DNA from: a bacterium
GTDB taxonomy: Bacteria; Patescibacteriota; Dojkabacteria; SC72
NCBI GenBank assembly: GCA_022840695.1
Contig: JALHDC010000002.1
Span: 25,753 to 89,752 of the forward strand
DNA length: 64,000 nucleotides
Reading direction: 5' to 3'
Of the stretch, positions 2,191 through 15,016 are shown one piece after another; the first letter of the stretch is position 1; each line of letters opens with the position of its first letter. Under the pieces are notes generated by a model. That model was not told where the DNA came from and made no database searches. It was given only the letters and a program-made list of their open reading frames with translations. The position numbers and the translations under genes were made by a program.

Positions 2191-2748
2191 ATGGATTCAA
2201 GTAGGAATAAAACTGTAGTGTTGTTTCTGTTAATGGGAGCTACTGTAATATTCTCAATACTGTATGTATTTGTAATACTGCCTAATAATAAAAGTACATT
2301 GGGAAGCTCTGATATACTTCTAGAACTACCAGTACAGAAATGGAATATTAGGTATTCGGAGTATGGAATACTACCATTTTGTAAAGATGATAATACATCA
2401 TTAACATTTGAAGTAGGACCAGATACTACAGTATTTTCATCAGTATCAGGTATTGTAAGCTCTGTTAAGGACAACATCATAACAGTTGAGGTGTCTCCTG
2501 GTATCTATGTAGAGCACTTTCCAGTATCTAATTACAATGTTTTTGAGAATGACTATATAACAAAGGGACAATCAATCGGAAAAGTAGATGGGGAGTATTT
2601 GAATTTAAGAATTAATGTACAAAAGAATGAGTTATATGAATGTCCATATAATTTTTTAAATACATTTGGAAAGAGTATCGTAGATGAGGTATTAGAATTA
2701 GTAGAATATGAGGGTAATGCTTGTGAATGTGCTATTTTAAATTATTAA
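2191..2748 (+). CDS. membrane-anchored hypothetical protein
   Basis: 185-aa ORF with N-terminal TM helix; no recognisable catalytic motif. Confidence 0.4.
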   Translation: MDSSRNKTVVLFLLMGATVIFSILYVFVILPNNKSTLGSSDILLELPVQKWNIRYSEYGILPFCKDDNTSLTFEVGPDTTVFSSVSGIVSSVKDNIITVEVSPGIYVEHFPVSNYNVFENDYITKGQSIGKVDGEYLNLRINVQKNELYECPYNFLNTFGKSIVDEVLELVEYEGNACECAILNY

Positions 2749-2759
2749 TATATAGATAT

Positions 2760-3041
2760 ATGCCTGAGTATGTATACAGTATTATATTGGTATTAGCTAT
2801 TGTAGGTATTATGGTTTGGTGGGTAGCTAAGAAGAGAGGAGAGGAATGGAAGGGAGAAGTAATTAAGAAGAGGTATTCTCCTGGGGATTATGAGAATTCA
2901 CCTAGTTATACTGTAGTGTTTAAGACAGATGAGGGTAAAAAGAAAAGATTTACTACAGCAGATAGTAAATATTATGATTCATGGAATGAGGGAGATAGGG
3001 CAGAGAAGAAGAAAGGAGAGTTTTTTCCAAGTAAGGTGTAG
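2760..3041 (+). CDS. small membrane-anchored hypothetical protein
   Basis: ORF; likely start at internal ATG 2760 (MPEYVY...), one TM then K/E-rich domain. Confidence 0.3.
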   Translation: MPEYVYSIILVLAIVGIMVWWVAKKRGEEWKGEVIKKRYSPGDYENSPSYTVVFKTDEGKKKRFTTADSKYYDSWNEGDRAEKKKGEFFPSKV

Positions 3042-3046
3042 TAATT

Positions 3047-3379
3047 ATGGAATTTGAAACACTTAGAAACAAGCAGGTGTATTTAATAGATAGGGATAAT
3101 AGTCCTTCTAAGTATAAAGAAGATTCTAAAAAGATAGAAGAAGAGATAAGGAAGGAGATATGGAATGGGGAATATAGTAAACCTATCTATTATTATGGTA
3201 TATCAGATGTTTTACCTGAATTAGATAAATTTACAAATGGAGATAGATCTAAGGTTTGTGTTTCTGATAATTGTGTATTTCCTGATAAATATAATAATAC
3301 ATTAGTTTATGTAGCAGAGGATAAGGTTATACATTGGTTTGTTTCTCCTAAGGATGTAGGATTGGAAAGAGGGGATTAG
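3047..3379 (+). CDS. hypothetical protein
   Basis: 110-aa ORF, co-directional, 5-nt spacing from upstream ORF. Confidence 0.35.
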   Translation: MEFETLRNKQVYLIDRDNSPSKYKEDSKKIEEEIRKEIWNGEYSKPIYYYGISDVLPELDKFTNGDRSKVCVSDNCVFPDKYNNTLVYVAEDKVIHWFVSPKDVGLERGD

Positions 3380-3406
3380 TAGGGTATAATTACATTGTTT
3401 TATTAT

Positions 3407-3484
3407 GGTGGATGTAGCTCAACTGGTTAGAGCATCGGTTTGTGGAACCGAGGGTTGTGGGTTCAAATCCCATCTTCCACCCCA
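3407..3484 (+). tRNA. tRNA-His (anticodon GTG) with encoded G-1 and 3' CCA
   Basis: cloverleaf folded by eye: extra G-1 pairing with discriminator C73 (His-specific), acceptor GTGGATG/CTTCCAC, anticodon stem TCGGT/ACCGA, loop TTGTGGA, T-arm GTGGG-TTCAAAT-CCCAT, CCA at 3482-3484. Confidence 0.9.
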
Positions 3485-3485
3485 T
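3472..3485. repeat. attL-like direct repeat (3' end of tRNA-His), ATCTTCCACCCCAT
   Basis: identical 14-mer recurs at 14365-14378; flanking similarity TCAAATC / TGAAATC. Confidence 0.7.
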
Positions 3486-3574
3486 GTAGAGAAACAATCT
3501 CTTTGTATTGGCAGCCTTTATTGATACTAAATCCAAGCTTGAGGTATGGTTCAAGTAGTTCGATAACTTTGTTT

Positions 3575-3793
3575 TTATTTCGTTGTAATCCCCTCATCGT
3601 TATCCTCCTTATATGATCCTGTATCGTCTTCAAATTGATATGGTTGATCATCTTCTGGATATTCAGTTTCCATTGCATTATCATCTTCTAGAAGGTCTGT
3701 AAGAGCCTCTAGAGACTGTTCATCCCCTTCATCGAATGTAGAAGTTTCTTCTGTATCTATTTCATCTTGTGTTGTCTGATCATCGTCATCCAT
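3575..3793 (-). CDS. very acidic small protein (about 45% Asp/Glu), last gene of the RM operon
   Basis: 72-aa ORF, 15 nt downstream of hsdS on the same strand; composition DDDD...EDD; no homology recognisable. Confidence 0.35.
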   Translation of the reverse strand: MDDDDQTTQDEIDTEETSTFDEGDEQSLEALTDLLEDDNAMETEYPEDDQPYQFEDDTGSYKEDNDEGITTK

Positions 3794-3807
3794 ATTTGAT
3801 TATATCG

Positions 3808-5025
3808 CTATATTAGCTTACCTTCAAAGGCTTTTTTAAGGATTGATTGACGGAGTGACTTTATAAAAGCTTTTTGCTCTTGAATCCTACGAATTGATTC
3901 GTCAGAGTATGTCTTTAACTTCTCAAGCTTCTTGGAAATCGCTTTTTGACGGCTTATGTCTTGAGGATAAATAAATGGCAGATTCTCTGTTTTTGATTTA
4001 TTTAATATTGGCAGTGTTGTACTAGAACTCTCAGTAGTGATTAATGAGCGTATTTTTCTGAGATAGAAATAAAGATATTTCATATCGAACTTTGGATTAG
4101 GAATAAAAGAATTGATTTGTTGGTTTGTTGTAAGCTCTACTTCTGCAATCCCGACTTTTCCAATCGTTGCACCTATGCAACATAAGAGTACTGTATCTTC
4201 AGGTAATAGTCTTACAACCCCAGTTTCGATTGCATATTTATCAATATATTTATTAGCCTTTGTGATTACGATTTCTGAGTCAGGTAAATCGCTTGGTCCG
4301 ACAAAAGGTATGTCCTGATTTGTATAGTAAAGTTTCTCCTTTGTTTGGGGTGTTTTTCCCGTGTATACTTGGAAAATATCTCCTAGTGATTTAATTTCCC
4401 AGCGATCATCTTCCTCAGGTAAGGTATGAGGGATAAGCCTCTCTAATGCACTATCCATTACCTTGTTTAATTTATCTTCAGCTTGTTTAAGCTTTGCTTC
4501 TGATTTATCTAATAATGTAAAGCATTCTTTTATTTTTGATAAGATTTCAGACTGTGTTTCTAAATCGGGCAAATTTATAGGAATTTCTCTTATGACTTTC
4601 ATCGGTTTTAAATTCTGCATTGCCGTGCCTGAAGTTTGTAGAAGATATCTCTTTTGGACATATTCTGATTCTAAGTAAAGCTTTAAAAACTCTGAGTACA
4701 CTTTTTCACTTGGTCGGATTCTTAGTAATGCTTGGTTTATAATGCCACTTTTTACACCTTTAGGAGCAATTGATAACTTTCCGATGGTTCCTGAACAACT
4801 CATGATTATGTCATTTGGTATTACTTCGAATGCCTTCATCTCTTGAAACTTCTCGCTATTTATATAATAGGAACCAAGTCTGAAATCATCGTAAATAGCA
4901 TTTTTTTGCTCATACACTTTATAACCATCTGGTACGAAAATGCTCTTCTTTAATGCTCCACCAAAAGGGCCTCTCTTTAGGTCTGCTACTTCATTTAGCT
5001 TGATTGTTTTAAAATTCTTTTTCAT
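3808..5025 (-). CDS. hsdS: type I restriction-modification specificity subunit
   Basis: 405 aa, two-TRD architecture with central and C-terminal conserved coiled-coil spacers, located after hsdM/hsdR. Confidence 0.8.
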   Translation of the reverse strand: MKKNFKTIKLNEVADLKRGPFGGALKKSIFVPDGYKVYEQKNAIYDDFRLGSYYINSEKFQEMKAFEVIPNDIIMSCSGTIGKLSIAPKGVKSGIINQALLRIRPSEKVYSEFLKLYLESEYVQKRYLLQTSGTAMQNLKPMKVIREIPINLPDLETQSEILSKIKECFTLLDKSEAKLKQAEDKLNKVMDSALERLIPHTLPEEDDRWEIKSLGDIFQVYTGKTPQTKEKLYYTNQDIPFVGPSDLPDSEIVITKANKYIDKYAIETGVVRLLPEDTVLLCCIGATIGKVGIAEVELTTNQQINSFIPNPKFDMKYLYFYLRKIRSLITTESSSTTLPILNKSKTENLPFIYPQDISRQKAISKKLEKLKTYSDESIRRIQEQKAFIKSLRQSILKKAFEGKLI

Positions 5026-5034
5026 TGCTATTTA

Positions 5035-5802
5035 TTAAAATGGTAATTCGTTTTCATTACTCACTGATTGAGGCTCTTCAATATTAAACTTTTTGTTGTA
5101 GTAGCTAATTAAAAATATTCCCACCGTAGCAACAGAATTAATGATAAATGAAGCATACAGAGGATTGTCTATAATTCTGTCTTCGGTTAATTTACCATGT
5201 GATCTAGTCTTTTCACTTCGGAGTTGTTCTATTGCTCTTGAAACAGCTAATAAGCTACTGCCTATTGTTTTCACCTCAGTAGGCATTTCTTTTTCTGGAT
5301 ATAATTGAAATTGTTTAAGAATATCAATAGCCTGTTCGTATAAAGTCTTTGTCTTATCAAAGTTTTCAAATTTACTATCCTTTAATATATGTTTTACGAT
5401 GCTTTCTAGTGCAGAATTAGCTAGTGAAATTGCATTATCTGGATGTTCGTAACATTGATTCAGTGCCTGTTTGAATGTTTCTCCAGCTGTTTGGTAGTTT
5501 ACCTTGAAAATATTATATATTTCAGATACCGCAGGTATAAAGTCTGGTGTATTAACTCCTATGTCTGCTGCGATTTGTAAAACGGTCTCATCGTCAATAT
5601 GTGTTAATGTCTGTGTCAAATCTATCTCGTTTGTATCTCCTTTGGTAATTATTACAAAATTCTGATTATTCCAATCATACTCTTCTATCCATTGCTCCAT
5701 GTATTGTCGTACACGCTTATACGTTTTGTATTCGTTCCATATAGCATTTTCAATCTCGAGTAATAACTGCATTTTGAATTTTGGAGAGATCTTATCTATC
5801 AT
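5035..5802 (-). CDS. hypothetical protein inserted between hsdM and hsdS; candidate HEPN/Abi-like defence protein
   Basis: 255 aa, start overlaps hsdM stop by 4 nt; C-terminal R-x6-H (RSEKTRSH) motif compatible with HEPN Rx4-6H; assignment tentative. Confidence 0.5.
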   Translation of the reverse strand: MIDKISPKFKMQLLLEIENAIWNEYKTYKRVRQYMEQWIEEYDWNNQNFVIITKGDTNEIDLTQTLTHIDDETVLQIAADIGVNTPDFIPAVSEIYNIFKVNYQTAGETFKQALNQCYEHPDNAISLANSALESIVKHILKDSKFENFDKTKTLYEQAIDILKQFQLYPEKEMPTEVKTIGSSLLAVSRAIEQLRSEKTRSHGKLTEDRIIDNPLYASFIINSVATVGIFLISYYNKKFNIEEPQSVSNENELPF

Positions 5803-7166
5803 AATTCTTTCTGTAATTTTTCCAAGTTATCTAATACCTCTTTAATATCCTTTATACTCTCTTGTATAAGTACTTCCGGTTCTGGAAGATCATCTAAGTT
5901 TCCTAAGCTCTTATCTTTTATCCAAGTGATATCTAAGTTGAAGTTTCTTTTTTGTATATCTTCATATGTAAATTTCTTCCATCTTTCTGTCTCTTCATTT
6001 CTATTCTGGTGTGCATCTTCAAATTCTTTGAAATAGTTTTTTGTTAATCCTTTTGTTTTGGTGATCTTTTCTACATTAGTTCTCATATCGTAGATCCATA
6101 CTTCTTCTGTTCTCTTACCTGTTTTTTCAAAGAAAAGAACGTTTGTTTTCACTCCTGCAGCATATGGTGTAAATACTCCATCTGGAAGTCTTAGGATAGT
6201 ATGTAGGTTGTTATTCTCTAATAATATCTTTCTAATCTTTTGACCATCGTTATCTTCAAAAAGTACATTGTCGGGCATAACCATTGCACATCTTCCTCCG
6301 ATCTTTAGAATACTCATACAGTGTTGTAGGAAGTTTAACTGCTTGTTACTTGTCTGTACTGTAAAGTCGTCTCTGGTGTATTTAGAGCCTCCAGATTTCG
6401 TTCCAAATGGAGGATTGGTTACTATTACGTCGTATGATCCATATCGTTCTTCTAGAGCGTCTCCAAAGCGTATATTGGCCTCTATATCGTGTAGGTAGAG
6501 GTTCATTATGCATAGTCTTCTTGTATCCCAAACAATCTCACCTCCTGATATTGCTTTCTTTTGTAGAAACTCTTGTTCTTCAATACTTAATGCTTTGTTT
6601 TCTTTTTCTAATTTACTAAATATGTGCTCAAATGCTCCAATTAAGAAGCCTCCTGTACCACAAGCAGGATCGTGTATTGTTTCGTTATGTTTTGGATCTA
6701 CACATTTAACTATTGATTTAATTAATTCTCTTGGTGTGAAGTATTGTCCTGCTCCTTTTTGATCAGCTGCAAATTTAGCTAGAAGGCCTTCATATGCTGT
6801 TCCTTTTACATCTATATCAAGTGTCCCCCAGTCGTTTTCGTTTATTAGAAGTATCAGCTTTGAGAGGTTTACTGGATTTCTGAATTTGTTGTTAGATTGG
6901 GAAAATATATCTCCTAATACGTCTTCTTGTTTCCCAAGTTCTCTAAGCATTTCAGAATAGTGTTCTAGAAGATCTGTACCACTATGTTCTAGCAGTGTAT
7001 TCCATTTATATTTTTCTGGTACATATGCTCCTCTTTCATCTGCCATTTTCAAAAAGAGTAGGTATGTCAACTGTTCAATGTAGTCTCCATAGTGCATACC
7101 GTCTGCTTTGAGTACGTTACAGTATCCCCAAAGTTTATTTACTATGTCTGATTCTTGTTGTGTCAT
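5799..7166 (-). CDS. hsdM: type I RM DNA methyltransferase subunit (N6-adenine)
   Basis: NPPFG catalytic motif (VIVTNPPFGTK), AdoMet-binding region, HsdM N-terminal domain. Confidence 0.9.
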   Translation of the reverse strand: MTQQESDIVNKLWGYCNVLKADGMHYGDYIEQLTYLLFLKMADERGAYVPEKYKWNTLLEHSGTDLLEHYSEMLRELGKQEDVLGDIFSQSNNKFRNPVNLSKLILLINENDWGTLDIDVKGTAYEGLLAKFAADQKGAGQYFTPRELIKSIVKCVDPKHNETIHDPACGTGGFLIGAFEHIFSKLEKENKALSIEEQEFLQKKAISGGEIVWDTRRLCIMNLYLHDIEANIRFGDALEERYGSYDVIVTNPPFGTKSGGSKYTRDDFTVQTSNKQLNFLQHCMSILKIGGRCAMVMPDNVLFEDNDGQKIRKILLENNNLHTILRLPDGVFTPYAAGVKTNVLFFEKTGKRTEEVWIYDMRTNVEKITKTKGLTKNYFKEFEDAHQNRNEETERWKKFTYEDIQKRNFNLDITWIKDKSLGNLDDLPEPEVLIQESIKDIKEVLDNLEKLQKEL

Positions 7167-7167
7167 A

Positions 7168-8718
7168 TTATTCTTGTCCTAAAATTATCTTTTCTAACTC
7201 TTGATAAACCTTCATTTCTGGAGTAATTACTTCTGCCAATTTTTGTTTGTATGTCTTTAGGTCAATACTTTTCAAAGTAGGTGTAACAGTGTTTCTAAAT
7301 GTTATACTTAGATCCTTCAGCTCGTCATTGATTATATCTTTAACCAACTTATCATATTCTTCCTTACTCGCGTTATTATCAAGCTTTGAAACCACCTCCC
7401 AGTCATACAAATAGTTCTCAAGCTCTCTTCGTTTGAGCATTCTTCTTTTGGTCGGATTCACTTTAAGCCATTCATCTCTATTCTCATTGTCTCGATCTTT
7501 TAAAACAAAAATTTTTAGTGAATCAAATGCTTTTGCTAATACCTTTAATGCTATCTCAGAATATCCGTCTGGTTCTGTATTTCCTCCGCTTGATACAAAT
7601 AATATCTCTGGCTTCGTTATCTCAAATATCTTGTTATAACAAATAGCGTCTATTCCTCGTTCATCGTCTGTATCATTGCGACCTTCGCAATAGTAAATCT
7701 GCTCAGGAGCTAGGAGGCCAGTTAAGTCCTCCAATGTTATCTTGAACAACTTTTTCCAATTTGCTGGTGTCGTCTTCATAGGGGTTAGTATTTGTTCAAC
7801 ATCGAAATCCTTATCAAAATCTAGCACAATGCTTTTGTCTTTTAGTTCCTTTTGTAGTGCTTGTAAAAAGCCTATGCTATGTGTTGCTATCCACAACTGG
7901 CAATTGTTAGGTACAAGTTTTTCGATCTCTATTAATAAGTTTCTTTGTATAGAAGGATTTATGTGTAGCTCAGGTTCGTCAATGCAAAAGATTGTATCGT
8001 TATAAGCATCTTTTTTGATAATCAAGTCAAGAACAATGTCTAAAACTTCTTTTTCTCCCGAGGAGAGATCTTCATAAGGTATATTTCGTGCTGATCCTTT
8101 ATGAAAGAATAATTGTCCTCTTTTTTCTATGACATTTCCTAAATCTGCCACTGATATATCTCCAAGAATATTTCTTAGTGATTGGTTAATTTGTCCAAGT
8201 AAATCGTTCATAATTTCTTGCCCAGTTTTTGTTCTTGTTACAAATACATCTTTCCAAGCTTTTCCTTGAAGTCTTTCATAGTTCTCTGTTAATCTGGAAT
8301 CTATCTGAGTCATACTTCCTGGTCTGTTTGTATCATTTAACAAGTCTTGCTCTTGTGCTCGTATCTGAGTGATATTTAGAGAAGGAGTATAACGATATGG
8401 AGTCCTAATGTAAAAACTCTTATTATTCAAGGCTGCTGAGTCCTCTCTTTCCACGTTAATGTTGGAATTTCTCGAGTATGAAGCTCCGCTCGGCTCTGAA
8501 CTTGTTACATATAAAGATTTAGACAGATATGTCACTTGAGGATTATAACTAGAGCCCTTATGATTCTTGTTTAACTCTTCAAAGGCGTCAAATACTGAAC
8601 TTTTCCCCGATCCATTGGGGCCAACAAGTGCTACTATTTTAGGTGAGTATCCATCTAAATCAATCTCAAGATTAGTGAAGCGTTTAAAATCTTTCAGAAT
8701 GACCTTCTTAATTCTCAT
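7168..8718 (-). CDS. ABC/SMC-like ATPase fused to C-terminal Toprim-like domain (OLD-family / PARIS AriA-AriB-like or Gabija GajA-like defence nuclease)
   Basis: Walker A GPNGSGKSS, signature-like LSSGEKEVL, Walker B FCIDEPELH, H-loop ATHS; C-terminal YYCEGRNDTD ... VLKDRDNEN resembling Toprim E/DxD motifs; embedded between hsdR and hsdM with overlapping ends. Confidence 0.6.
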   Translation of the reverse strand: MRIKKVILKDFKRFTNLEIDLDGYSPKIVALVGPNGSGKSSVFDAFEELNKNHKGSSYNPQVTYLSKSLYVTSSEPSGASYSRNSNINVEREDSAALNNKSFYIRTPYRYTPSLNITQIRAQEQDLLNDTNRPGSMTQIDSRLTENYERLQGKAWKDVFVTRTKTGQEIMNDLLGQINQSLRNILGDISVADLGNVIEKRGQLFFHKGSARNIPYEDLSSGEKEVLDIVLDLIIKKDAYNDTIFCIDEPELHINPSIQRNLLIEIEKLVPNNCQLWIATHSIGFLQALQKELKDKSIVLDFDKDFDVEQILTPMKTTPANWKKLFKITLEDLTGLLAPEQIYYCEGRNDTDDERGIDAICYNKIFEITKPEILFVSSGGNTEPDGYSEIALKVLAKAFDSLKIFVLKDRDNENRDEWLKVNPTKRRMLKRRELENYLYDWEVVSKLDNNASKEEYDKLVKDIINDELKDLSITFRNTVTPTLKSIDLKTYKQKLAEVITPEMKVYQELEKIILGQE

Positions 8719-11428
8719 TTGGATACCCTCCTTGTAATACTCGCTGATTTACATCTGCAATAACATACTGTAATTCTCCATTAAAATCGGTATTAGCTTT
8801 GTTATACCCACCTTTTCTTTTGAAGGTAAGGAGGTTGTTGAAGTCTTCTTTTTCTACAACAACATTCCTAGTGAGATGATTCTTTACAAGGTTTAACCAT
8901 TGCAATTGTTGTTGAGTGTATTCATCTAATTTCATAGTACTGAAAGCATTATCTACTCTTTCTTGTGGAGATATCAACTCACCACCATATACAGCATATG
9001 ACACAAAAGAGTAGAGGTCTGCATCTGTTTCTTCTTCTATGATCTGTTCTGCGGCTTCTTGTAATCTTCTTTCTGTAAACATTTCAGGAGTATTCTTCAA
9101 TTGCTCTTTTAGTTCGTTAAAAGCTTTTCTAGTGAAGTCTTTTGGATTCTCTAGAAGTATCCTTAATGCTTGTATAGTATGCTTGTTATCGTTTATGTAT
9201 GTTTTAAACGATTCCATGTAGTCTTCAGGTTTTAGATCTCTTCCATCTGTAGTTTTGAAAAGGTACTCAGAAGTTACAATCTTTGCTTGCCTCTCTCTGG
9301 AAACGATTAACCCATCTCTATATCTTGGGTATCTTTTAACAAATGTTATCCAGTTTGCATCTCCCCATCTTTCTAATTCCTGTTCGTTCTTGCTTGATAA
9401 TCTGTCTTGTACTGAGTCTGCAAGTTTTAGTAATCCATCTTTTTCAATTCCGAACCTATCTTCAAGTTCTTGTCTTCCCTCTTCTGTAATGTTTTTATCC
9501 ATTCGTCTTAGCTTGTTTGCTAGAATCTTCGCGTTCTTATCAATATTCGTTTCATTTTCTAATTCTTCTACCACCTCCTCTATGGATTTGGTGTTTGAAG
9601 GGGCTGTAGGCTCCATTACGCCTCCTTCTTTCTGCATAAACTCTATTACCCCCACTGCGTCAAATACTGTGAAATGGGTCTTTCCTATTTCGTTACAAAG
9701 TCTTGTTCCCCTTCCTATAATCTGCTCATAAAGTATTCTTGATCTAATAGGGCGAATTAGTACTAAGTTTTCAACTTGGGGAATATCAACACCAGTTGAA
9801 AGCATATCTACTGAAACAACAATACTTGGCTTCTTTTCGTTTCTAAAATGTCTTATCCAACTATTCGCTTTATCGATTCTGTATGTGATCTTTTGAATCT
9901 CATCTGGATATTTTATCTCTTCTTGTAATAGTTTTACTAATTGATCTGCGTGATCTTCGTTTACTGCGTAGAATATGGTCTTAGGTATTCTTTCGCCCTC
10001 TTTTTTAATGTAGGAGAGCACTTCTTGTACAATTTTTCTGTTTCTATCTTCAACTGTAACTTTTCTTTCTAATGAAGCCGTTTGAATGTTCAATTCATCT
10101 TCTAGGAAGGTACTAAATCTGTATGTACCACCTCTGTCTCTAACTTCTACCGCTTCTCCCTTTTGAAGTTCAATCTCTTTTGCCATATCTATGTCAGTTT
10201 GTATCCTTACAGCGTCAAAGTCTACTAAGTATCCTTCGTGTACTGCTTTTTCGTATGGGTAGTAGTAGATGTCTTTTTCGGTATGACAATCAAAATATGC
10301 TGCAGTATGAGCGGCTGGTGTTGCCGTTAATCCAATTTGATAACTATCGAAATAGTCGAGAACGTATTTCCACTTGTTGTAAATTGATCGATGGCATTCA
10401 TCTGAAATGATTAAGTCGAAGCTATCAATTGGGAAATCTGGATTATATTTGATTTCTGAATCCCCTAACTCTTCCCAGTTCTCATCTTCAATGTCTGTAT
10501 AACTTACTTTTTTTCCTGTTAATGTTGCATATAGTCCCTGTATCGTTGACACATAGACAAATGAGTTTACATTCTGTCGATTCTTCAAATTCTTGAGTTG
10601 TAATTGTTCTGCTCCTAGATCTTTTGGATCTTCGTCTCCTTTAAACAATCTATCAAAATATACTGGATATACAGTGTTAAATTTCTGGCCTGTTACTGGC
10701 TCAAACGTTGAGAATGCTGAGATTGCCTGAGAAGCAAGTGATCTTCTATCAACTAGAAACAGGATTCTTTTGAAATATCCTGTTCTCATTAAGTGATAGA
10801 TCAATGCTGAAGCCATAAAGGTTTTGCCTGTACCTGTTGCCATAGCTACGAGTCCTTTTCTTTTGCCTTCAAGTATTCGTTTAACTGCATACTCGACTGC
10901 TTCCTTTTGGTATTTTCTTAATCCCTTTTGTCCGTACTTCTCTATAACTTGTTCTGTTTCAAGTTCTCTTAGTGCCTCGTTTTTTGAATCTGAGAGCAAT
11001 TCGTTTAATGCTTCTGGTGTATGAAATCCTTTTACTCGTCTTGGTATCGAATTATTGATATGCAATTCTTGGAATGTTATTTCATTTCCGTCTGTACTGT
11101 ATATGAATGGTACTTTGTATTCTCCGTAGAGCTTTGGAAGGTCGATATCTTGGGCGTATCTCTTAGCTTGTGCAATGACTCCTTCTGTTGAGGTGTTATC
11201 CTTCTTGGCTTCTACAATCGCAATTGCTTTGCCATTAAAAGTTAATAAGTAGTCAGCTGGTCCTGAGACTGTTCCAAATTCTACTATTGCGTCTTTACTG
11301 CTATTAGTGAGGTCTTCTTTTGTTCGAGTGACTTTCCATCCAGCGTCTTTTAGAAGTTTATCAATACTATCTTTTCTAGTATTCTTTTCACTTTTGTAAG
11401 TCTTCGTAAATCTGAATGGTAGTTCCAT
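8708..11428 (-). CDS. hsdR: type I restriction enzyme R subunit (endonuclease/helicase)
   Basis: N-terminal PD-(D/E)xK nuclease (IVEAKKD), SF2 helicase motifs MATGTGKT and DECHR, 906 aa. Confidence 0.9.
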   Translation of the reverse strand: MELPFRFTKTYKSEKNTRKDSIDKLLKDAGWKVTRTKEDLTNSSKDAIVEFGTVSGPADYLLTFNGKAIAIVEAKKDNTSTEGVIAQAKRYAQDIDLPKLYGEYKVPFIYSTDGNEITFQELHINNSIPRRVKGFHTPEALNELLSDSKNEALRELETEQVIEKYGQKGLRKYQKEAVEYAVKRILEGKRKGLVAMATGTGKTFMASALIYHLMRTGYFKRILFLVDRRSLASQAISAFSTFEPVTGQKFNTVYPVYFDRLFKGDEDPKDLGAEQLQLKNLKNRQNVNSFVYVSTIQGLYATLTGKKVSYTDIEDENWEELGDSEIKYNPDFPIDSFDLIISDECHRSIYNKWKYVLDYFDSYQIGLTATPAAHTAAYFDCHTEKDIYYYPYEKAVHEGYLVDFDAVRIQTDIDMAKEIELQKGEAVEVRDRGGTYRFSTFLEDELNIQTASLERKVTVEDRNRKIVQEVLSYIKKEGERIPKTIFYAVNEDHADQLVKLLQEEIKYPDEIQKITYRIDKANSWIRHFRNEKKPSIVVSVDMLSTGVDIPQVENLVLIRPIRSRILYEQIIGRGTRLCNEIGKTHFTVFDAVGVIEFMQKEGGVMEPTAPSNTKSIEEVVEELENETNIDKNAKILANKLRRMDKNITEEGRQELEDRFGIEKDGLLKLADSVQDRLSSKNEQELERWGDANWITFVKRYPRYRDGLIVSRERQAKIVTSEYLFKTTDGRDLKPEDYMESFKTYINDNKHTIQALRILLENPKDFTRKAFNELKEQLKNTPEMFTERRLQEAAEQIIEEETDADLYSFVSYAVYGGELISPQERVDNAFSTMKLDEYTQQQLQWLNLVKNHLTRNVVVEKEDFNNLLTFKRKGGYNKANTDFNGELQYVIADVNQRVLQGGYPNEN

Positions 11429-11449
11429 AATGTCTTATTATATCGCAGA

Positions 11450-13747
11450 TTATTGTGTCTGAATAGCCATTTCTGATAGCTTTTGCTCTATTCTGTTCCA
11501 GTCTAAAATTAAATCTAAACTCTGATTCCACCAGTCACTAAATGGCAATTGTGAATCAGTCTTTTTTATTTCACTATATTGTCCAACTCGAAGTGTATCA
11601 GTCGATGGAATATTGTATGTACCTGATTCAGTAATCAACCATCTGTCGTGCAAGGAATTCTTTAATTCTGAATCTAAAATGACACGCATTTCTGCGTTTA
11701 TACCTCTGTAGTTGAGCTCTTCTTTTAAGGTTTTGAACTTTTCTCGAATCTTATGGTCTACTTTATTTATCGAAGTTATAATTTTTACAGAGGAGATTTT
11801 TGAATCTGAGCTTTCTGATATGCTTTCGGATATTAAATCCAAGCCTACGACTGAAAAGTATTTGTCTACCCATTTGATTTCGCCATATTGAGCTTTGATT
11901 ATATCCTTGAGATGTTTTGTATTCGTGTATGGACTTTGTGGTGTTATTAGGATCGTTTCCTTTTGAGCTCCTTCAAAAATGCTTCTTAATTCATTAATGA
12001 TTGTCTTCTTTCTCTCTTGAATGAAGTCATTAAAGTCTTCAGATCCGAAATTTTCTCTCGTCAGTATTTCAATAGCCTTTCTAGAAAGAAGATGTGTTTG
12101 CATTAGATCGTAGAATTGCTCGTCATTTCCGATATTTCTCTTTATCTCGTTGAGGTAATCGCTTGGAAGTCTGTCGCTAATCTTCTTGTTTGTATCATTT
12201 GAAATAGGAGCTTTGTTTAATATCGTATTTATGTCTTTTATTCCGTTTTTCTTACCCCAAGATGCTGGAACAATGTGGTGATCTTCTAATACTGAATACT
12301 CTGGTAGATTGTTTGTATAGAAATCTCTTGCTTCGTTTCTAGCAAACAAACTGAATATTGCATTATATATAGCAGTATTCTGCCTATTCTCTCTAACCAA
12401 ATCTAGATTCTCAATAGTATTAACGGCTCTTTGAACCACATTTGGTGTTATTGAATCGTCTTCTATCCATTTTTTGAGGTCTAAGTAGTCTTTTGTCATT
12501 GTTGATTCAACACTGCTCGAATAACTGTTGGATAGTACAGAAGCCCAATACCATTGTGTAATCTTCTTATCAAAAGCTTGCTGTTTTGTTGAATCGAGTG
12601 ACTCTTTTTCTTTCAGTAGAACAGCGAGAATTGGGGTCATAGTTGGATATGGAATAAACTTTGGTTGAAGTGATCCAAAATCCCTAGGATTCTCGATTTT
12701 TGCTAAAGCCTTTTGAGTATATTGTAAGGCCTCACCCCAGTATTGTGTGAATTCTTCCGGGCTTGTCATAATAACACGTTTCTCTTTTGAACCATCTTCT
12801 TTTCTAATTGTTCTTTGCGTATTAGGCACCAAGTAGTAAAGGTATCTAGGTGAGCAATATCCTTGTAGTCTGATCGACATATACTGAAGAAGGTATATGT
12901 TCATCTTTTCTAATTCCTTGTGGTTATAATTTTCAGAAGCAATTCTCCAGTTTTTCTTAAGCTCAATAGCGTGAGGCTTCAATAACGCGTTGAGAAGATC
13001 GAAGATCGTAAGTTTCAACCCAGATGAGTTGATTTTTGTAAATATATCGCACACCTTTGCGACATCGATGTCCTTTGAAAGCTCTATGTAGCTAATATCG
13101 TAACTATTAAGTAATGATTGGAAGAACTTCTCTAGCTTCTGAACTTTCTCTTCTTTTTCGGTATACCCTTGTTTCTCTAACCAATTTCCATACTGTACAA
13201 CCCACTTATACCATTCAAAGCCTTGACCAAGAAGATAAAGTGGGAATAGTCCTTCTTCGAATTGCTTTTCTAATGGTCCTACAAATTCTTCAGCAGTTCT
13301 TTGTCTTGAAGTATTGTCATTTCTGTACTCAATTGATTCGTCCCAATCGTCTTCTAAAATACTGTTTAGTTTAACAAAGAAATAGAAACGAGTTTTTCTT
13401 TTTGGAAATGGCTCTGTAGGTGGGAAAAATGCATAATGTAGAGCACTAAGTCTCTGTTGTCCGTCTAAAACAATGTGTTGGGCTGTATATTTTAGTTTCT
13501 CTTTATTGATCTTGTTAAATCCGTATATAGACTCACAATTCAGTTTATCGAAGTTTTCTGGGGTTGATCTCCAGAGAAGTAGTGTACCAATGTAATAATC
13601 TGCGAATATTGATTGCAACAATGCTTGTATATCCCAAGGTCCCCATTCAAATTCTCTTTGAAAGTCTGGAATTACATAGAATCCAGAATCTATTGCAGTT
13701 AGTATTTTGCTAAGATTGTCTTTTGACGGAGTCTCTAGGTCTCGCAT
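11450..13747 (-). CDS. DUF262 (ParB-like NTPase) / DUF1524 (His-Me finger) protein, GmrSD/BrxU-like type IV restriction enzyme, with extra C-terminal domain
   Basis: N-terminal FQREFEW and DGQQR motifs; EDHHIVP...N His-Me finger motif; 765 aa with about 200-aa uncharacterised C-terminal extension; first gene of the operon. Confidence 0.75.
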   Translation of the reverse strand: MRDLETPSKDNLSKILTAIDSGFYVIPDFQREFEWGPWDIQALLQSIFADYYIGTLLLWRSTPENFDKLNCESIYGFNKINKEKLKYTAQHIVLDGQQRLSALHYAFFPPTEPFPKRKTRFYFFVKLNSILEDDWDESIEYRNDNTSRQRTAEEFVGPLEKQFEEGLFPLYLLGQGFEWYKWVVQYGNWLEKQGYTEKEEKVQKLEKFFQSLLNSYDISYIELSKDIDVAKVCDIFTKINSSGLKLTIFDLLNALLKPHAIELKKNWRIASENYNHKELEKMNIYLLQYMSIRLQGYCSPRYLYYLVPNTQRTIRKEDGSKEKRVIMTSPEEFTQYWGEALQYTQKALAKIENPRDFGSLQPKFIPYPTMTPILAVLLKEKESLDSTKQQAFDKKITQWYWASVLSNSYSSSVESTMTKDYLDLKKWIEDDSITPNVVQRAVNTIENLDLVRENRQNTAIYNAIFSLFARNEARDFYTNNLPEYSVLEDHHIVPASWGKKNGIKDINTILNKAPISNDTNKKISDRLPSDYLNEIKRNIGNDEQFYDLMQTHLLSRKAIEILTRENFGSEDFNDFIQERKKTIINELRSIFEGAQKETILITPQSPYTNTKHLKDIIKAQYGEIKWVDKYFSVVGLDLISESISESSDSKISSVKIITSINKVDHKIREKFKTLKEELNYRGINAEMRVILDSELKNSLHDRWLITESGTYNIPSTDTLRVGQYSEIKKTDSQLPFSDWWNQSLDLILDWNRIEQKLSEMAIQTQ

Positions 13748-13886
13748 TGTAATTCCTCGCTAAAATTACTTTTATAAGGATATCAGAAAAGGCTGTATTT
13801 GAACAGAAATACAACTGTGTATTCATCGTACTAGCACTCTCTCTCAGAGTTTGCTAAAATAATTAATAACTTTTCAATTTAGCTTT

Positions 13887-14201
13887 ATGTCTAAAACACA
13901 ATCACACATAAGAGCCCAGTCTAAGGCTGCAGGTAAAGAGGGAAAACAGGAAGTCTCCTTATCTCGAAATAGACGACTAGATGCGGTTACAAAGTCTGGG
14001 TCTCGAGCAACAGAGATTGAAAGAAGTGGAAATCCAAAACTTCTTGAGAAAGCGGCTCAGAGATTAGGAGATAGACGTTCAAGTCAGAAGGTCTTGCAAG
14101 TTCCTCAGTCAGATATGGGATTAGCTACTGCCGCAATGCGAAAAAAGGAAGTCCACGGAACAGTTAAAAATATGTCAGGCACAAAGAGGAGATCTGTATA
14201 A
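13887..14201 (+). CDS. doubtful ORF (basic 104-aa product) within a GC-rich anomalous block; may instead be noncoding
   Basis: uses codons rare for this genome (CGA, GCG, ACG, GGC); local GC far above window average. Confidence 0.15.
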   Translation: MSKTQSHIRAQSKAAGKEGKQEVSLSRNRRLDAVTKSGSRATEIERSGNPKLLEKAAQRLGDRRSSQKVLQVPQSDMGLATAAMRKKEVHGTVKNMSGTKRRSV

Positions 14202-14364
14202 AGTTGGAGTCCTCGCTTCCTTCTAAGTTTTAGAGCTTATAATCGAGCTTTATATAAGGCTTAGTCTTACTTTCAGCAATGATCAAATCCATCTCTTCCT
14301 GAACCTTTTTAACTTGTTGGAATAGCGGTATTAGTACCTCTTCGACAAATTGGAGAAGTTTGAA

Positions 14365-14378
14365 ATCTTCCACCCCAT
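14365..14378. repeat. attR-like direct repeat ATCTTCCACCCCAT
   Basis: identical to 3472-3485 (tRNA-His 3' end). Confidence 0.7.
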
Positions 14379-14665
14379 TTCTCCCTACTTTTTTCTGTTA
14401 TAATAAAAAATGGAATTAAAAGGTAATATCTTCTGGTATATATATATTCCTTCTACTATTACAATTCATACTCTTAATATTTGCATTAAATCAGAAATAT
14501 GATTTTTTCAATATTAAAATTATAAAAATATCTGACTATGTTATCTCATATATACCAAGAATATTAATAGTAACTATATTACAATTCTTTCTAGTATATA
14601 TATTCCTAACAAAGGGATACTATACCGATTCTACATTATCCTTAGTAATTACATTATTCTCTACT

Positions 14666-15016
14666 TTGATACTCTTAGATACAATAGGGAATATTTTTAA
14701 TCTATATAACATAGGAGAGATAGTAGGGAAGTTACACTATGATAATATAATGCACTCTATTGGACCCCTCATTATCTTCATATCCTCACATATGCTTTTA
14801 GTTAATAGATTTAGTTATACTAATGACAAATCAAGATTAATATCCTTAGTAGTTGCACTCTCACTTATACTACTCTGGGAACTTTATGAATATAGTAGTG
14901 ATCTAATATTTCATACTAAAATGGTTTTAGGATCTAAAGATACCATTAGAGACCTAATATACGGTACAGGAGCAATAATAATTGGATTTCTAATGACATA
15001 TCTACCAGTAATCTAA
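14666..15016 (+). CDS. small multi-pass membrane protein (TTG start in ORF track; reading frame stays open upstream to 14420)
   Basis: 116-aa ORF starting at TTG; in-frame upstream translation is also strongly hydrophobic, with no ATG. Confidence 0.4.
   Translation: MILLDTIGNIFNLYNIGEIVGKLHYDNIMHSIGPLIIFISSHMLLVNRFSYTNDKSRLISLVVALSLILLWELYEYSSDLIFHTKMVLGSKDTIRDLIYGTGAIIIGFLMTYLPVI

Follow-up and report, generated by a model that had tools for sequence, protein, structure and literature searches.

Direct repeats of the 3' end of a tRNA gene are a recognised mark of islands inserted by tyrosine integrases (PMC7192596, PMC6109161). The 10.9-kb island considered here lies in a 64-kb stretch of DNA, referred to as the window throughout, from a CPR bacterium with a tiny genome (Dojkabacteria). 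It resembles the Islander/TIGER and P4-like tyrosine-integrase islands in its insertion at a tRNA 3' end that leaves the tRNA intact, its distal direct repeat, the tRNA-proximal integrase of intact members, its accessory or defence cargo and foreign composition, and the occurrence of tandem arrays and decayed copies. It is unlike them in that the recombinase of the family is a large serine recombinase (LSR), which the window copy lacks, and in that the repeat is just 14-15 nt long and occupies the extreme 3' end of the tRNA, including the CCA.

Among serine-family enzymes, a small recombinase of the phiRSM type reportedly has a tRNA gene as the insertion site for a filamentous phage, and likewise uses a tRNA 3' end as attB, but it is resolvase-like, without large C-terminal domains, and its element is a filamentous phage and not a defence island. 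The large serine integrases (phiC31, Bxb1, A118, SPbeta SprA and TP901-1, and Ccr of SCCmec) have in common with the enzyme of the sister islands, which is 552-594 aa long, three domains, a catalytic-serine motif and a place beside their own att site at the end of the element, although the phage LSRs are just 22-27% identical to it. Those integrases insert into protein-coding genes, unlike the present family, whose target is a tRNA gene (PMC6109161, PMC7192596), whose attP lies inside the recombinase ORF and whose host is a CPR bacterium. LSRs are not known to target tRNA genes (PMC7192596), which makes tRNA-His an unusual target for such an enzyme and counts against the LSR-driven insertion proposed below.

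Two other kinds of locus are comparable. The int gene of SSV1-type archaeal integrases is split by integration, and defence genes embedded in Type I restriction loci are known from the E. coli prr locus, where hsd contains PrrC, from the 'immigration control region' and from defence islands. In mycobacteriophages BPs and Brujita, as summarised in a passage of PMC6109161 (Broussard 2013), attP lies inside the repressor gene and provides an integration-dependent switch. The present family is comparable to the BPs/Brujita repressor and the SSV1-type integrases in that integration would alter the C-terminus of an element protein, that of the sister LSR and not of any window protein, as crossover would fall close to where the ORF ends; it differs in that the affected protein is a serine recombinase with a tail ending LDYKL and no ssrA-like tag. 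As in Type I restriction-modification (R-M) loci with embedded genes, hsdR-hsdM-hsdS is interrupted, here by genes for an Abi_C protein and an ABC ATPase, with GmrSD adjoining and the embedded slots varying among sister islands. Neither PrrC nor RloC is among the embedded genes, the likeness of the ATPase to AriA/PtuA is confined to its ATPase part, and the whole locus belongs to a presumably LSR-mobilised element whose host is a CPR bacterium.

An island at the 3' end of tRNA-His

The segment at 3485-14378 (Table 1) is very probably a horizontally acquired defence island that was inserted at tRNA-His by an LSR and has since lost the LSR by deletion. A perfect 14-nt direct repeat had been reported at its ends, and an exact search agrees: ATCTTCCACCCCAT occurs exactly twice in the 64-kb window, both times on the plus strand, and no extra copies appear there at one mismatch. 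The preliminary description put the chance of recurrence at about 1e-4, which matches the figure of about 2e-4 per 64 kb obtained for this C-rich 14-mer from base composition; dinucleotide-preserving shuffling, repeated 100 times, gave 0.02 copies on average and never two or more. The tRNA has G-1 at 3407 and an encoded CCA, and since it ends at 3484, the first repeat copy comprises its last 13 nt, including CCA, plus one further base. tRNA-His is the attB-side (B) arm of attL. The similarity of the bases flanking the repeat, previously written as TCAAATC and TGAAATC, is real, although that register was off by 3 nt; the true alignment sets GTTCAAATCCC followed by ATCTTCC against GTTTGAA followed by ATCTTCC.

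Table 1. Positions in the window of the tRNA, att sites, island genes, recombinase remnants and right-flanking segment
Feature	Position	Strand	Basis
tRNA-His (GTG)	3408..3484	+	ARAGORN; Rfam RF00005 67.4 bits at 3408-3481
44-codon chimeric ORF from deletion	3463..3597	-	translation
attL copy, 14-nt core ATCTTCCACCCCAT	3472..3485	+	same core flanks sister island L114
Surviving P' arm (island side), ~20 nt	3486..3504	+	alignment to L114/L115
Very acidic 72-aa protein (~45% D+E)	3575..3793	-	translation
HsdS, Type I R-M specificity subunit, two target-recognition domains	3808..5025	-	Pfam, PADLOC
Abi_C / AbiJ-like abortive-infection protein, between hsdM and hsdS	5035..5802	-	Pfam Abi_C 2.2e-9; PADLOC AbiJ 1.4e-7
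HsdM, Type I R-M methyltransferase	5799..7166	-	Pfam N6_Mtase 1.3e-73 + HsdM_N; PADLOC MTase_I 3.7e-175
ABC-type (AAA_15/AAA_21) ATPase, between hsdR and hsdM	7168..8718	-	Pfam, PADLOC
HsdR, Type I restriction subunit	8708..11428	-	Pfam, NCBIfam
GmrSD-family (DUF262-type) putative type IV restriction enzyme, 765 aa	11450..13747	-	Pfam, PADLOC
p104, 104-aa basic protein, minimal PD-(D/E)XK-like fold	13887..14201	+	
Orphan LSR C-terminal tail ORF (fossil 2), 47 codons, P arm of attR	14230..14373	-	
attR copy, 14-nt core; island right end	14365..14378	+	sister homology stops there
385-bp segment outside island proper	14379..14763	+	seen only in window-type contigs

The composition of the island is foreign to the host. 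The GC contrast with the flanks, a comparison suggested at the outset, is marked: 0.352 against 0.307, with native stretches of 10.9 kb at 0.294-0.314 (sd 0.005), which places the island about 9 sd above them. The tetranucleotide distance reaches 0.27 for the island and at most 0.106 for native stretches, and GC3 is 0.293 against 0.221.

About 120 comparison loci were fetched and are labelled by L numbers. Sister islands stand at tRNA-His in two other host backgrounds (L114-L117; L120/L121), the flanks of which have no homology to those of the window; L114-L117 have 83-92% nucleotide identity to window 3505-3795 and 5906-14379, and L121 has 92% identity to 12090-14377. On both sides of the L114 island is a core of 15 nt, ATCTTCCACCCCATT, and the attR of L114 reads ...AAATTGGAGAACTTTGAAATCTTCCACCCCATT, with a P arm homologous to that of the window. 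Homology of the sisters to the window ends at 14379 (L114) and 14377 (L120). This sharing of the distal repeat bears out the earlier view of a site-specific insertion at the tRNA-His 3' end with the 14-mer as att core. In L121, from the third host, attL reads ...CATCTGCCACCCCA and attR ...ATCTTCCACCCCA, and the T/G mismatch between them suggests that the crossover lay inside CCACCCCA, a position that would keep the tRNA intact.

One locus, L105, carries the same backbone at 90% identity, with homology that stops at 14206 and no core copy within 1 kb past that point. This boundary counts against the explanation preferred here.

It may be asked whether any site-specific event need be invoked, as homologous recombination through the flanks could have brought in the segment, the 14-mer being a chance repeat or a duplicated tRNA fragment. 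The site is a multi-allelic hotspot bordered by conserved genes (glmS...tRNA-His on the left, metallophosphoesterase and heliorhodopsin genes on the right), and alleles may plausibly have been exchanged within the species through these homologous flanks as a secondary process. As an account of the island itself this is very improbable: the same island, distal core and P arm are found in hosts with non-homologous flanks, the chance expectation of the 14-mer is that given above (about 2e-4), and sister-island homology ends exactly at the core.

Alternative occupants and the right flank

In conspecific contigs, with flanks 97-99% identical, tRNA-His is followed by four different occupants, two of them with other LSRs. 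The tRNA is identical among these contigs, and the alleles part from each other within a base of 3484/3485, after the CCA. An empty site (the tRNA and then TTTCTCCCTAC...), which the preliminary description had proposed to seek in relatives, was present in none of the roughly 120 fetched loci, and this too counts against the preferred explanation.

The 385 bp that follow attR are of uncertain origin, either native, as the 5' part of a membrane-protein frame of ~198 codons, or an older insertion remnant. L013 and L015, which have a different occupant, regain homology only at 14764, at a shared ACCCC, as would follow from an extra 385-bp deletion in those contigs or from a second, older remnant in the window; this boundary is another point against the preferred explanation. 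A native-looking membrane gene had been said to resume after attR. The frame is indeed open from 14421 to 15016, but it has no ATG, GTG or TTG before 14666, and the ATG at 14410 is in another frame. The extended -10 reported ahead of it can be read directly (TGTTATAAT at 14397-14405); the promoter scan omitted TGTTATAAT because it has no -35 match.

Loss of the recombinase

The intact sister islands L114-L117 carry, adjoining the tRNA, an ORF of 552 aa that encodes Resolvase, Recombinase and Zn_ribbon_recom domains and the catalytic-serine motif YLRKSTKSDEQ. None of these full domains is left in the window, where only 13 end codons and an orphan tail persist. That the island holds no integrase, excisionase or transposase ORF, as noted previously, is upheld from two sides: family scans of the island ORFs found no such domain in any of them, and tblastn of the serine recombinases of related loci against the whole 64-kb window returned nothing bar a short tRNA-antisense stretch.

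The window is without exactly 1,834 bp, equivalent to L115rc 2422-4255 and comprising the LSR together with the greater part of a small HTH gene. Window 3384-3504 aligns to L114/L115 until 20 nt beyond the tRNA, window 3505-3795 aligns 1,834 bp further on, and the junction at 3504/3505 is identical across three independent assemblies, so that it is unlikely to be an artefact of assembly. The chimeric ORF created by the deletion begins, behind an RBS (AGGAGG), with the ATG at 3597 and fuses the first 31 HTH codons in frame to the end of the LSR. This first fossil consists of the last 13 LSR codons (3463-3504, KEIVSLHGVEDGI and then the stop), which terminate within the antisense strand of the tRNA; the C-terminus of the L115 recombinase, for comparison, is ...KEVLFLNGVEDGT followed by its stop. 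The minus strand of the surviving P' arm encodes the final codons of the deleted LSR, and the arm itself, TGTAGAGAAACAATCTCTTT, resembles TTTAGAGAAAGCACCTCTTT (L076, L107, L111) and TTGAGAAAAAGTACCTCTTT (L114). At the other end of the island, the orphan tail differs from the L114 tail in 12 codons, 8 of the differences being synonymous and 4 conservative.

The preliminary description had left the choice between a decayed and a trans-mobilised island. Decay stands: the window island lacks an integrase because it is decayed, its sisters having kept the 1,834-bp LSR segment. Trans-mobilisation is less likely, since only ~20 nt of the island-side arm of attL remain. In such a scheme the island would still be mobile as a non-autonomous element, its attL and attR being recombined in trans by a related LSR and a directionality factor, with the LSR encoded at another genomic locus or on a co-resident element. 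At attR both the core and the full P arm are intact, related LSR elements occupy the same site in conspecific strains, and in other species LSR-less mini-modules lie between the tRNA end and a core copy (L051, L059, L080, L081). Moreover, L007 and L008 carry a 753-bp DUF7736 module between the tRNA and the LSR-less island, and the ACCCCAT sequences flanking this module suggest that the joint kept rearranging after the LSR was lost, although deletion between ACCCCAT repeats would explain the L007 difference equally well. LSR half-sites measure ~20-25 bp, so that the window attL, with its P' arm of ~20 nt, is borderline at best; in addition, the 64-kb window is without any LSR homologue, and the co-resident LSRs of conspecifics are from other clades, whose P' arms differ. 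On balance continued mobility in trans is improbable, if less so than recombination through the flanks.

A large serine recombinase with attP in its reading frame

At least 22 further loci with the same tRNA have an LSR ORF directly 3' of tRNA-His, reading into the tRNA, and the 3' end of the tRNA is found again, in copies, further downstream. The attP reconstructed for L114 contains an ORF of 594 aa, against 552 aa in the integrated form, and in the reconstructed circular sister island the tail joins the recombinase in frame. The attR copies of L051 and L081 encode homologous tails of 48-49 aa ending LDYK(L/F) or LDYNL, and conserved tails are seen in two LSR clades. As attP lies inside the LSR ORF, integration would cut off the conserved tail. 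The tails carry no ssrA-like tag: those of clade 1 end LDYKL, LDYKF or LDYNL, and those recovered from clade 2 (for instance that of L013, ...IKIQDFFP) have no LAA-type end. Other LSR clades at tRNA-His share just ACCCC(A) with their attR. The protein collection contains no circular or attP form and no full-length LSR of 594 aa, and for this reason we infer LSR-driven integration from the architecture.

The 'classical' tRNA signature would lead one to expect a tyrosine integrase, but the recombinase is of the large serine type. Direct repeats of tRNA 3' ends are the textbook mark of tyrosine-integrase islands (PMC7192596, PMC6109161), and the locus might be read as a tyrosine-integrase island of the P4/Islander type that lost its integrase, the sister LSR being an unrelated passenger. 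This is very improbable, as family scans and precomputed Pfam annotations show no tyrosine recombinase among the genes from tRNA to attR, in the sister islands or in the alternative occupants. Furthermore, the LSR is tied to the att site, since its ORF runs across the core and the P arm carries the coding sequence of its conserved tail, and several LSR clades show the same architecture at the same tRNA.

Defence cargo

Pfam, PADLOC and NCBIfam matches agree with the earlier assignment of the cargo to defence genes. Its placement on one strand holds for seven genes, on the minus strand, and fails for the 104-aa ORF, which is on the plus strand. HsdR, HsdM and HsdS together make up a Type I R-M system by these three collections, with activity that is putative from sequence. 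HsdR matches Pfam ResIII (2e-37), EcoEI_R_C (2e-34), HSDR_N and Helicase_C and NCBIfam PRK11448 (7e-169); HsdS matches Methylase_S (1.1e-36) in two stretches and PADLOC Specificity_I (4e-50), and its place is taken in L007 by a different HsdS of 31% identity. The 72-aa acidic protein had no family match in Pfam, PADLOC or NCBIfam scans; it has eight homologues in all, each within a sister island, and its gene adjoins hsdS across the whole island family.

The embedded slots vary. In sister islands that of the Abi_C protein is either empty or filled by a protein of 208 or 175 aa, and that of the ABC ATPase is occupied in L105 by an SLFN_AlbA_2/HATPase_c_4 protein. The window ATPase matches Pfam AAA_21 (4e-23) and AAA_15 (1e-19) and PADLOC AriAB (4.7e-34); its ATPase part is AriA/PtuA-like, its C-terminal 217 aa have no Pfam match, and its NCBIfam PtuA and MAD3 scores are far under the cut-offs. 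A PARIS system (AriA/AriB) was considered and rejected, as only the ATPase part is AriA-like and no AriB-like gene is adjacent.

The type IV enzymes GmrSD and BrxU combine an N-terminal DUF262 NTPase with a C-terminal DUF1524 His-Me nuclease domain. The window protein matches Pfam GmrSD_N (3.4e-30) and PADLOC HEC-05 (1.3e-28), and its C-terminal part has no Pfam match, although a DHHIVP motif can be read in the protein sequence. At the right end, p104 belongs to a conserved module of the island family, tail ORF - p104 - GmrSD. It is likely that the Type I system cuts unmodified DNA and the GmrSD protein modified DNA, the Abi_C protein and the ABC ATPase probably serving as abortive-infection-type back-ups.

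Origin and fate of the island

In the history proposed here, attP of a circular form would have been joined to the tRNA-His 3' end (attB) at a common core of 14-15 bp by the LSR that the island encoded. Intact members of the family have the order tRNA-His, LSR, small HTH gene, gene for the acidic 72-aa protein, Type I R-M operon with its embedded genes, GmrSD, p104 and attR, and in the window lineage the 1,834-bp deletion took out the LSR and the larger part of the HTH gene. It is at the level of the family that these islands are unusual, with an LSR that targets a tRNA 3' end, an attP that lies within the LSR ORF and at least three independent losses of the LSR. The window island itself is a decayed and otherwise ordinary defence island, and as a consequence of the LSR deletion it would be unable to mobilise itself and may now act as a fixed chromosomal defence locus.

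The tRNA-His site and the limits of the island

The 14-mer ATCTTCCACCCCAT occurs twice in the 64 kb by exact search, at 3472-3485 and 14365-14378, with no further copies in the window at up to one mismatch, and a pair of hits arose in none of 100 dinucleotide-preserving shuffles. The left copy consists of the final 13 nt of tRNA-His, including the encoded CCA, plus one base. The direct repeat at the tRNA end that had been claimed from the sequence alone is thus real, resting on the exact search, the shuffles and the tRNA calls of ARAGORN and Rfam. The 10.9-kb block between the copies (3485-14378, here the island) is compositionally foreign: GC is 0.352 vs 0.307 (native 10.9-kb windows 0.294-0.314, sd 0.005), GC3 0.293 vs 0.221, and the tetranucleotide distance 0.27, where the native maximum is 0.106. 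Genes of housekeeping appearance flank it, with the glmS ribozyme, glmS and then small genes on the left and metallophosphoesterase, heliorhodopsin, HisRS and ABC transporter genes on the right. The glmS ribozyme upstream of glmS in this CPR genome lies at 214-351 on the plus strand (Rfam RF00234, 47 bits).

Homologues of p72, the acidic 72-aa protein of the island, led to loci L114-L119, which carry a sister island with 83-92% nucleotide identity to window 3505-3795 and 5906-14379 in a host with a slightly different tRNA-His and with flanking genes that do not match those of the window. The homology of L114 to the window stops at 14379, with unrelated DNA beyond, and its attR reads ...AAATTGGAGAACTTTGAAATCTTCCACCCCATT, the window counterpart being ...AAATTGGAGAAGTTTGAAATCTTCCACCCCATT. 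A third host background, represented by two NCBI MAGs (L120 and L121), has a copy of the island's right end with 92% identity to window 12090-14377. The tRNA-His of L121 ends in CATCTGCCACCCCA, and attR there reads ATCTTCCACCCCA. From the comparisons with L114 and L121, the 14-mer is identified as the recombination core and 14378 as the right end, and the alignments establish movement of the island between species to the same target. Since attL of L121 has the host-type G and attR the element-type T, these junctions point to a crossover within CCACCCCA. The attP junction to be expected would read ...AAATTGGAGAAGTTTGAAATCTTCCACCCCATGTAGAGAAACAATCTC..., and that of an empty attB ...GGGTTCAAATCCCATCTTCCACCCCATTTCTCCCTACTTTTTTCTG.... 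The reading of the block as a site-specific insertion at tRNA-His is therefore supported by the same core and right end in sister islands of other hosts. Another related locus, L105, has the island backbone and lacks the attR region.

Two features just right of attR in L114 deserve mention. A 463-aa gene considered as a second recombinase, and so as a sign of a tandem element, has no similarity to any large serine recombinase (LSR) and has a PD-(D/E)XK look. About 25 nt (12173-12200 of the reverse complement) resemble the P' arm, the island-side arm of the att site, and recombinase 3' end of the L064/L077-type LSR clade with no recombinase behind; this stretch resembles a scar left by an earlier element, and it appears that elements have repeatedly accreted in tandem at the site and then lost the recombinase. 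Contigs of the window species (L003, L005, L006, L009) share their sample series (JGI Ga025534x; ENA ERZ2724927x-8x) with L114-L119, so that both hosts co-occur and the inferred transfer had an opportunity.

Loss of the integrase

In window orientation the sister island of L114-L119 reads tRNA-His, a 552-aa LSR, a 106-aa HTH gene, p72, an HsdM-S fusion, an ABC ATPase, HsdR, GmrSD, the 104-aa basic protein p104 and attR. Its LSR combines Resolvase, Recombinase and zinc-ribbon domains with the catalytic-serine motif YLRKSTKSDEQ and shares only 22-27% identity with phage serine integrases. In the window, none of the eight convincing ORFs found by family scans between the 14-mer copies has a recombinase or transposase domain, and queries with recombinases from related loci found no serine recombinase homologue in the whole 64 kb. 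The preliminary description, which had called the island integrase-less and either decayed or trans-mobilised, was right about the absence and about decay: window 3384-3504 aligns to the sister island up to 20 nt past the tRNA, and at 3505 the alignment resumes 1,834 bp on, the missing segment being 2422-4255 of the reverse complement of L115 (L115rc). Trans-mobilisation is the less likely option, since the island-side arm of attL is down to about 20 nt. All of the LSR but its last 13 codons was deleted, together with the 3' two-thirds of the HTH gene, and the scar joins the RBS, ATG (3597) and first 31 codons of the latter in frame to the last 13 LSR codons; the resulting fusion ORF ends in KEIVSLHGVEDGI and a stop, and the corresponding end in L115 is KEVLFLNGVEDGT and a stop.

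The same scar is present in L007, a conspecific contig. L106-L111 lack L115rc 2727-4358 and keep the last ~110 LSR codons, and L120 has only a 232-aa LSR remnant, beside an IS200-type Y1 transposase gene. Judged by these junctions, two lineages beside that of the window and L007 have lost the LSR in different ways, so that three independent losses are seen. The recombinase of L013, another conspecific contig, was considered as the enzyme of the window island and set aside, as its clade, its P' arm and its tail are all different; the likeness of window 3485-3517 to its C-terminus comes almost wholly from residues encoded by the tRNA antisense strand.

A reconstructed attachment site within the recombinase gene

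At least 22 of the loci found by tRNA pattern have, directly 3' of tRNA-His and on the other strand, an LSR ORF that runs into the tRNA gene and ends 18 or 62 nt within it. When the ends of L114 are joined as a circular attP, the LSR is fused in frame with an ORF running leftward from attR, and the 552-aa integrated form, ending ...NGVEDGT, becomes a reconstructed 594-aa form ending ...NGVEDFKVLQFVEEVLIPLFQQVKKVQEEMNLIIAESRTKPYVKLDYKL, each followed by a stop. The window keeps a 47-codon LSR tail as an orphan ORF (14230-14373) that differs from the L114 tail at 12 codons, eight synonymously and four conservatively. In L081 and L051 the attR copies adjoin homologous tails of 48-49 aa ending LDYKF or LDYNL, and a conserved tail of another sequence, WGGWWEEFR..., marks a second LSR clade (L013, L059, L036, L037). 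By this reconstruction the recombinase ORF would contain attP within its 3' end, and the C-terminus of the enzyme would be rewritten upon integration. The proposal rests on reconstruction as no full-length LSR is on record: with the 47-aa tail as query the protein collection returned only orphan ORFs of 47-68 aa, and an excised or circular form of the island was not observed.

On the mechanism that this arrangement would allow, the enzyme encoded by the circular form would be full-length and carry a conserved C-terminal tail (~48 aa ending LDYKL in clade 1, WGGWWEEFR... in clade 2), and integration would swap the tail for a few residues from the tRNA antisense strand. Such a swap could act as a built-in switch of directionality or stability, in which the full-length enzyme integrates and the truncated prophage form is inert or partner-dependent. 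Repeated loss of the LSR, in three independent events, would then domesticate incoming defence islands in small-genome bacteria. The joint reading, which we hold to be possible and rather doubtful, is that of a serine-integrase element of a kind not described before and spread widely through Dojkabacteria, in which at least two LSR clades with attP in the 3' end of their own ORF target the tRNA-His CCA end, the tail swap serves as the switch, LSR loss amounts to domestication, and the window holds a fossil.

SSV1-type tyrosine integrases follow a similar principle; no report of a serine integrase with attP inside its own ORF was found in the literature searched. For repressor genes in integration-dependent immunity a comparable principle has been described (PMC6109161), and serine integrases have been described as 'not known for targeting tRNA genes' (PMC7192596). 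The association of tRNA-His with an LSR may extend beyond Dojkabacteria. The tRNA-His of L067, from a high-GC, non-CPR Candidatus Coatesbacteria MAG (GC 0.57), is likewise followed on its 3' side by a homologue of serine recombinases whose frame runs into the tRNA.

Alleles at the tRNA-His site

Public collections scanned with the 26-nt tRNA-His 3' half yielded 46 metagenome and 36 genome loci, and the AT-rich ones with conserved glmS...tRNA-His synteny carry the label Candidatus Dojkabacteria (Patescibacteria/CPR). Conspecific contigs, found by exact-protein look-up of the flanking genes, have flanks 97-100% identical to those of the window and part company immediately after the tRNA CCA, where four alleles are seen. 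An empty site, with the tRNA followed by the right flank, had been suggested as a comparison; none was found among the looked-up loci or in the 26-nt metagenome and GTDB scans, and four occupants were found instead.

Coordinates of features in the window and occupants of the tRNA-His site
Feature	Position or loci	Strand	Basis or remark
tRNA-His(GTG)	3408-3484		ARAGORN, Rfam
p72, 72 aa, very acidic	3575-3793	minus	
HsdS	3808-5025		
Abi_C/AbiJ-like protein	5035-5802		
HsdM	5799-7166		
AAA_15/AAA_21 ABC-type ATPase	7168-8718		
HsdR	8708-11428		
GmrSD_N protein, 765 aa	11450-13747		
p104, basic, 104 aa	13887-14201	plus	
Allele, window type	L001, L002, L012; GCA_022839185.1		identical to window; 99.9% identical
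Allele, window type + extra module	L007, L008, L014, L018, L019		same island, different HsdS
Allele LSR-A	L003, L005, L006, L010, L028, L032		LSR ORF abuts tRNA
Allele LSR-B	L013, L015, L039		5.1-kb element, other LSR, terminase-small-subunit-like HTH protein, HinfI-type R-M
DUF7736 module	L007 2043-2794; L008; L080; L059/L089		L080 ~1-556 nt, L059/L089 ~1-644 nt after tRNA

Within the LSR-A allele, L009 has just a 121-aa LSR remnant and a MazG-like gene. The LSR-B element (L013 2573-7703) comprises the LSR, a 121-aa HTH gene, two unknown genes and a HinfI-type REase and MTase; the HTH protein matches phage small-terminase PHROG 4102 (2.7e-17), and by its predicted gene set the element resembles a phage-satellite-like mini-element. 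The extra module of the L007-type allele is a 753-bp DUF7736 module between tRNA and island, flanked by ACCCCAT. Modules of this kind, 0.55-0.75 kb with their own promoter, directly follow tRNA-His in several Dojkabacteria species; distally they are bounded by the tRNA 3' end repeated in full or in degenerate form (CCGACCCCA or CCATCCACCCCA), they contain no recombinase, and they could be miniature cargo cassettes of the same integration system. Numerous MAG and metagenome contigs (among them L066, L069, L097, L083 and L003/L028) end at or within 160 nt past tRNA-His, consistent with assembly breaks at a strain-variable hotspot.

Right of attR, homology of L013 and L015 to the window resumes only at 14764, at a shared ACCCC. 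The frame 14421-15016 is open for 198 codons and predicts a membrane-like protein; the chance of so long an open frame in AT-rich DNA is about 1e-4, which argues for 14379-14763 being coding DNA that runs on into the conserved 74-aa ORF, and such continuity favours a microhomology deletion in the L013 lineage. Upstream of 14666 this frame offers no ATG, GTG or TTG. The ATG at 14410, 5 nt past an extended -10 (TGTTATAAT), lies in the +1 frame, and the two frames overlap over a (TA)5 run in which one added TA unit would join them, so that 14379-15016 could be a pseudogene, could use a non-canonical start or could be phase-variable. A 1-nt difference restoring the frame was sought in the L007-type strain, and the strains are identical over 14379-14800.

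Cargo of the island

The Type I restriction-modification (R-M) gene set of the window island is complete, and the slots between its genes vary. The hsdM-hsdS slot holds Abi_C in the window and unknown proteins of 208 or 175 aa or an M-S fusion in the sister islands, the last being a single 669-aa gene in one variant (L105 1315-4834, L106-L113 and L114 7987-9996 compared). The hsdR-hsdM slot holds the ABC ATPase in the window and a Schlafen/AlbA_2 (SLFN_AlbA_2/HATPase_c_4) protein in L105. The match of the ATPase to the AriA/PtuA models is confined to its ATPase part, and it is not filed under PARIS or Septu since no nuclease partner or nuclease domain is recognisable. GmrSD_N indicates that the 765-aa protein is probably a type IV, modification-dependent enzyme; Pfam did not confirm a C-terminal nuclease domain. 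The p72 protein (~45% Asp+Glu) is conserved right after hsdS in every sister island, its 8 homologues being found nowhere else, and its charge suggests a DNA mimic or R-M regulator. Family membership points to a layered defence on a single mobile cassette, in which the Type I system would restrict unmodified DNA, GmrSD would act on modified phage DNA and the Abi and ATPase-type proteins would serve as back-ups. No near match to the island was found in the plasmid collection.

Significance

What the window contains is a decayed defence island of an ordinary, textbook sort; its boundaries, origin and missing integrase are explained. What is new is the kind of parent element, the tRNA-His-specific LSR islands of Dojkabacteria with an att site that, as reconstructed, lies inside the recombinase gene. 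Large serine integrases are the enzyme class used in genome engineering, and the recombinases of these islands would recognise a short, highly conserved natural target, the tRNA 3' end; the attP, attB and 552-aa and 594-aa enzyme sequences can be read directly from the loci found, and if the tail controls activity it would offer a new and simple route to a directional reaction. CPR bacteria (Patescibacteria) have tiny genomes and few known mobile elements. In the present case, one tRNA gene serves as a multi-allelic landing pad at which restriction and abortive-infection cargo is exchanged across species, to become fixed once the recombinase is lost.
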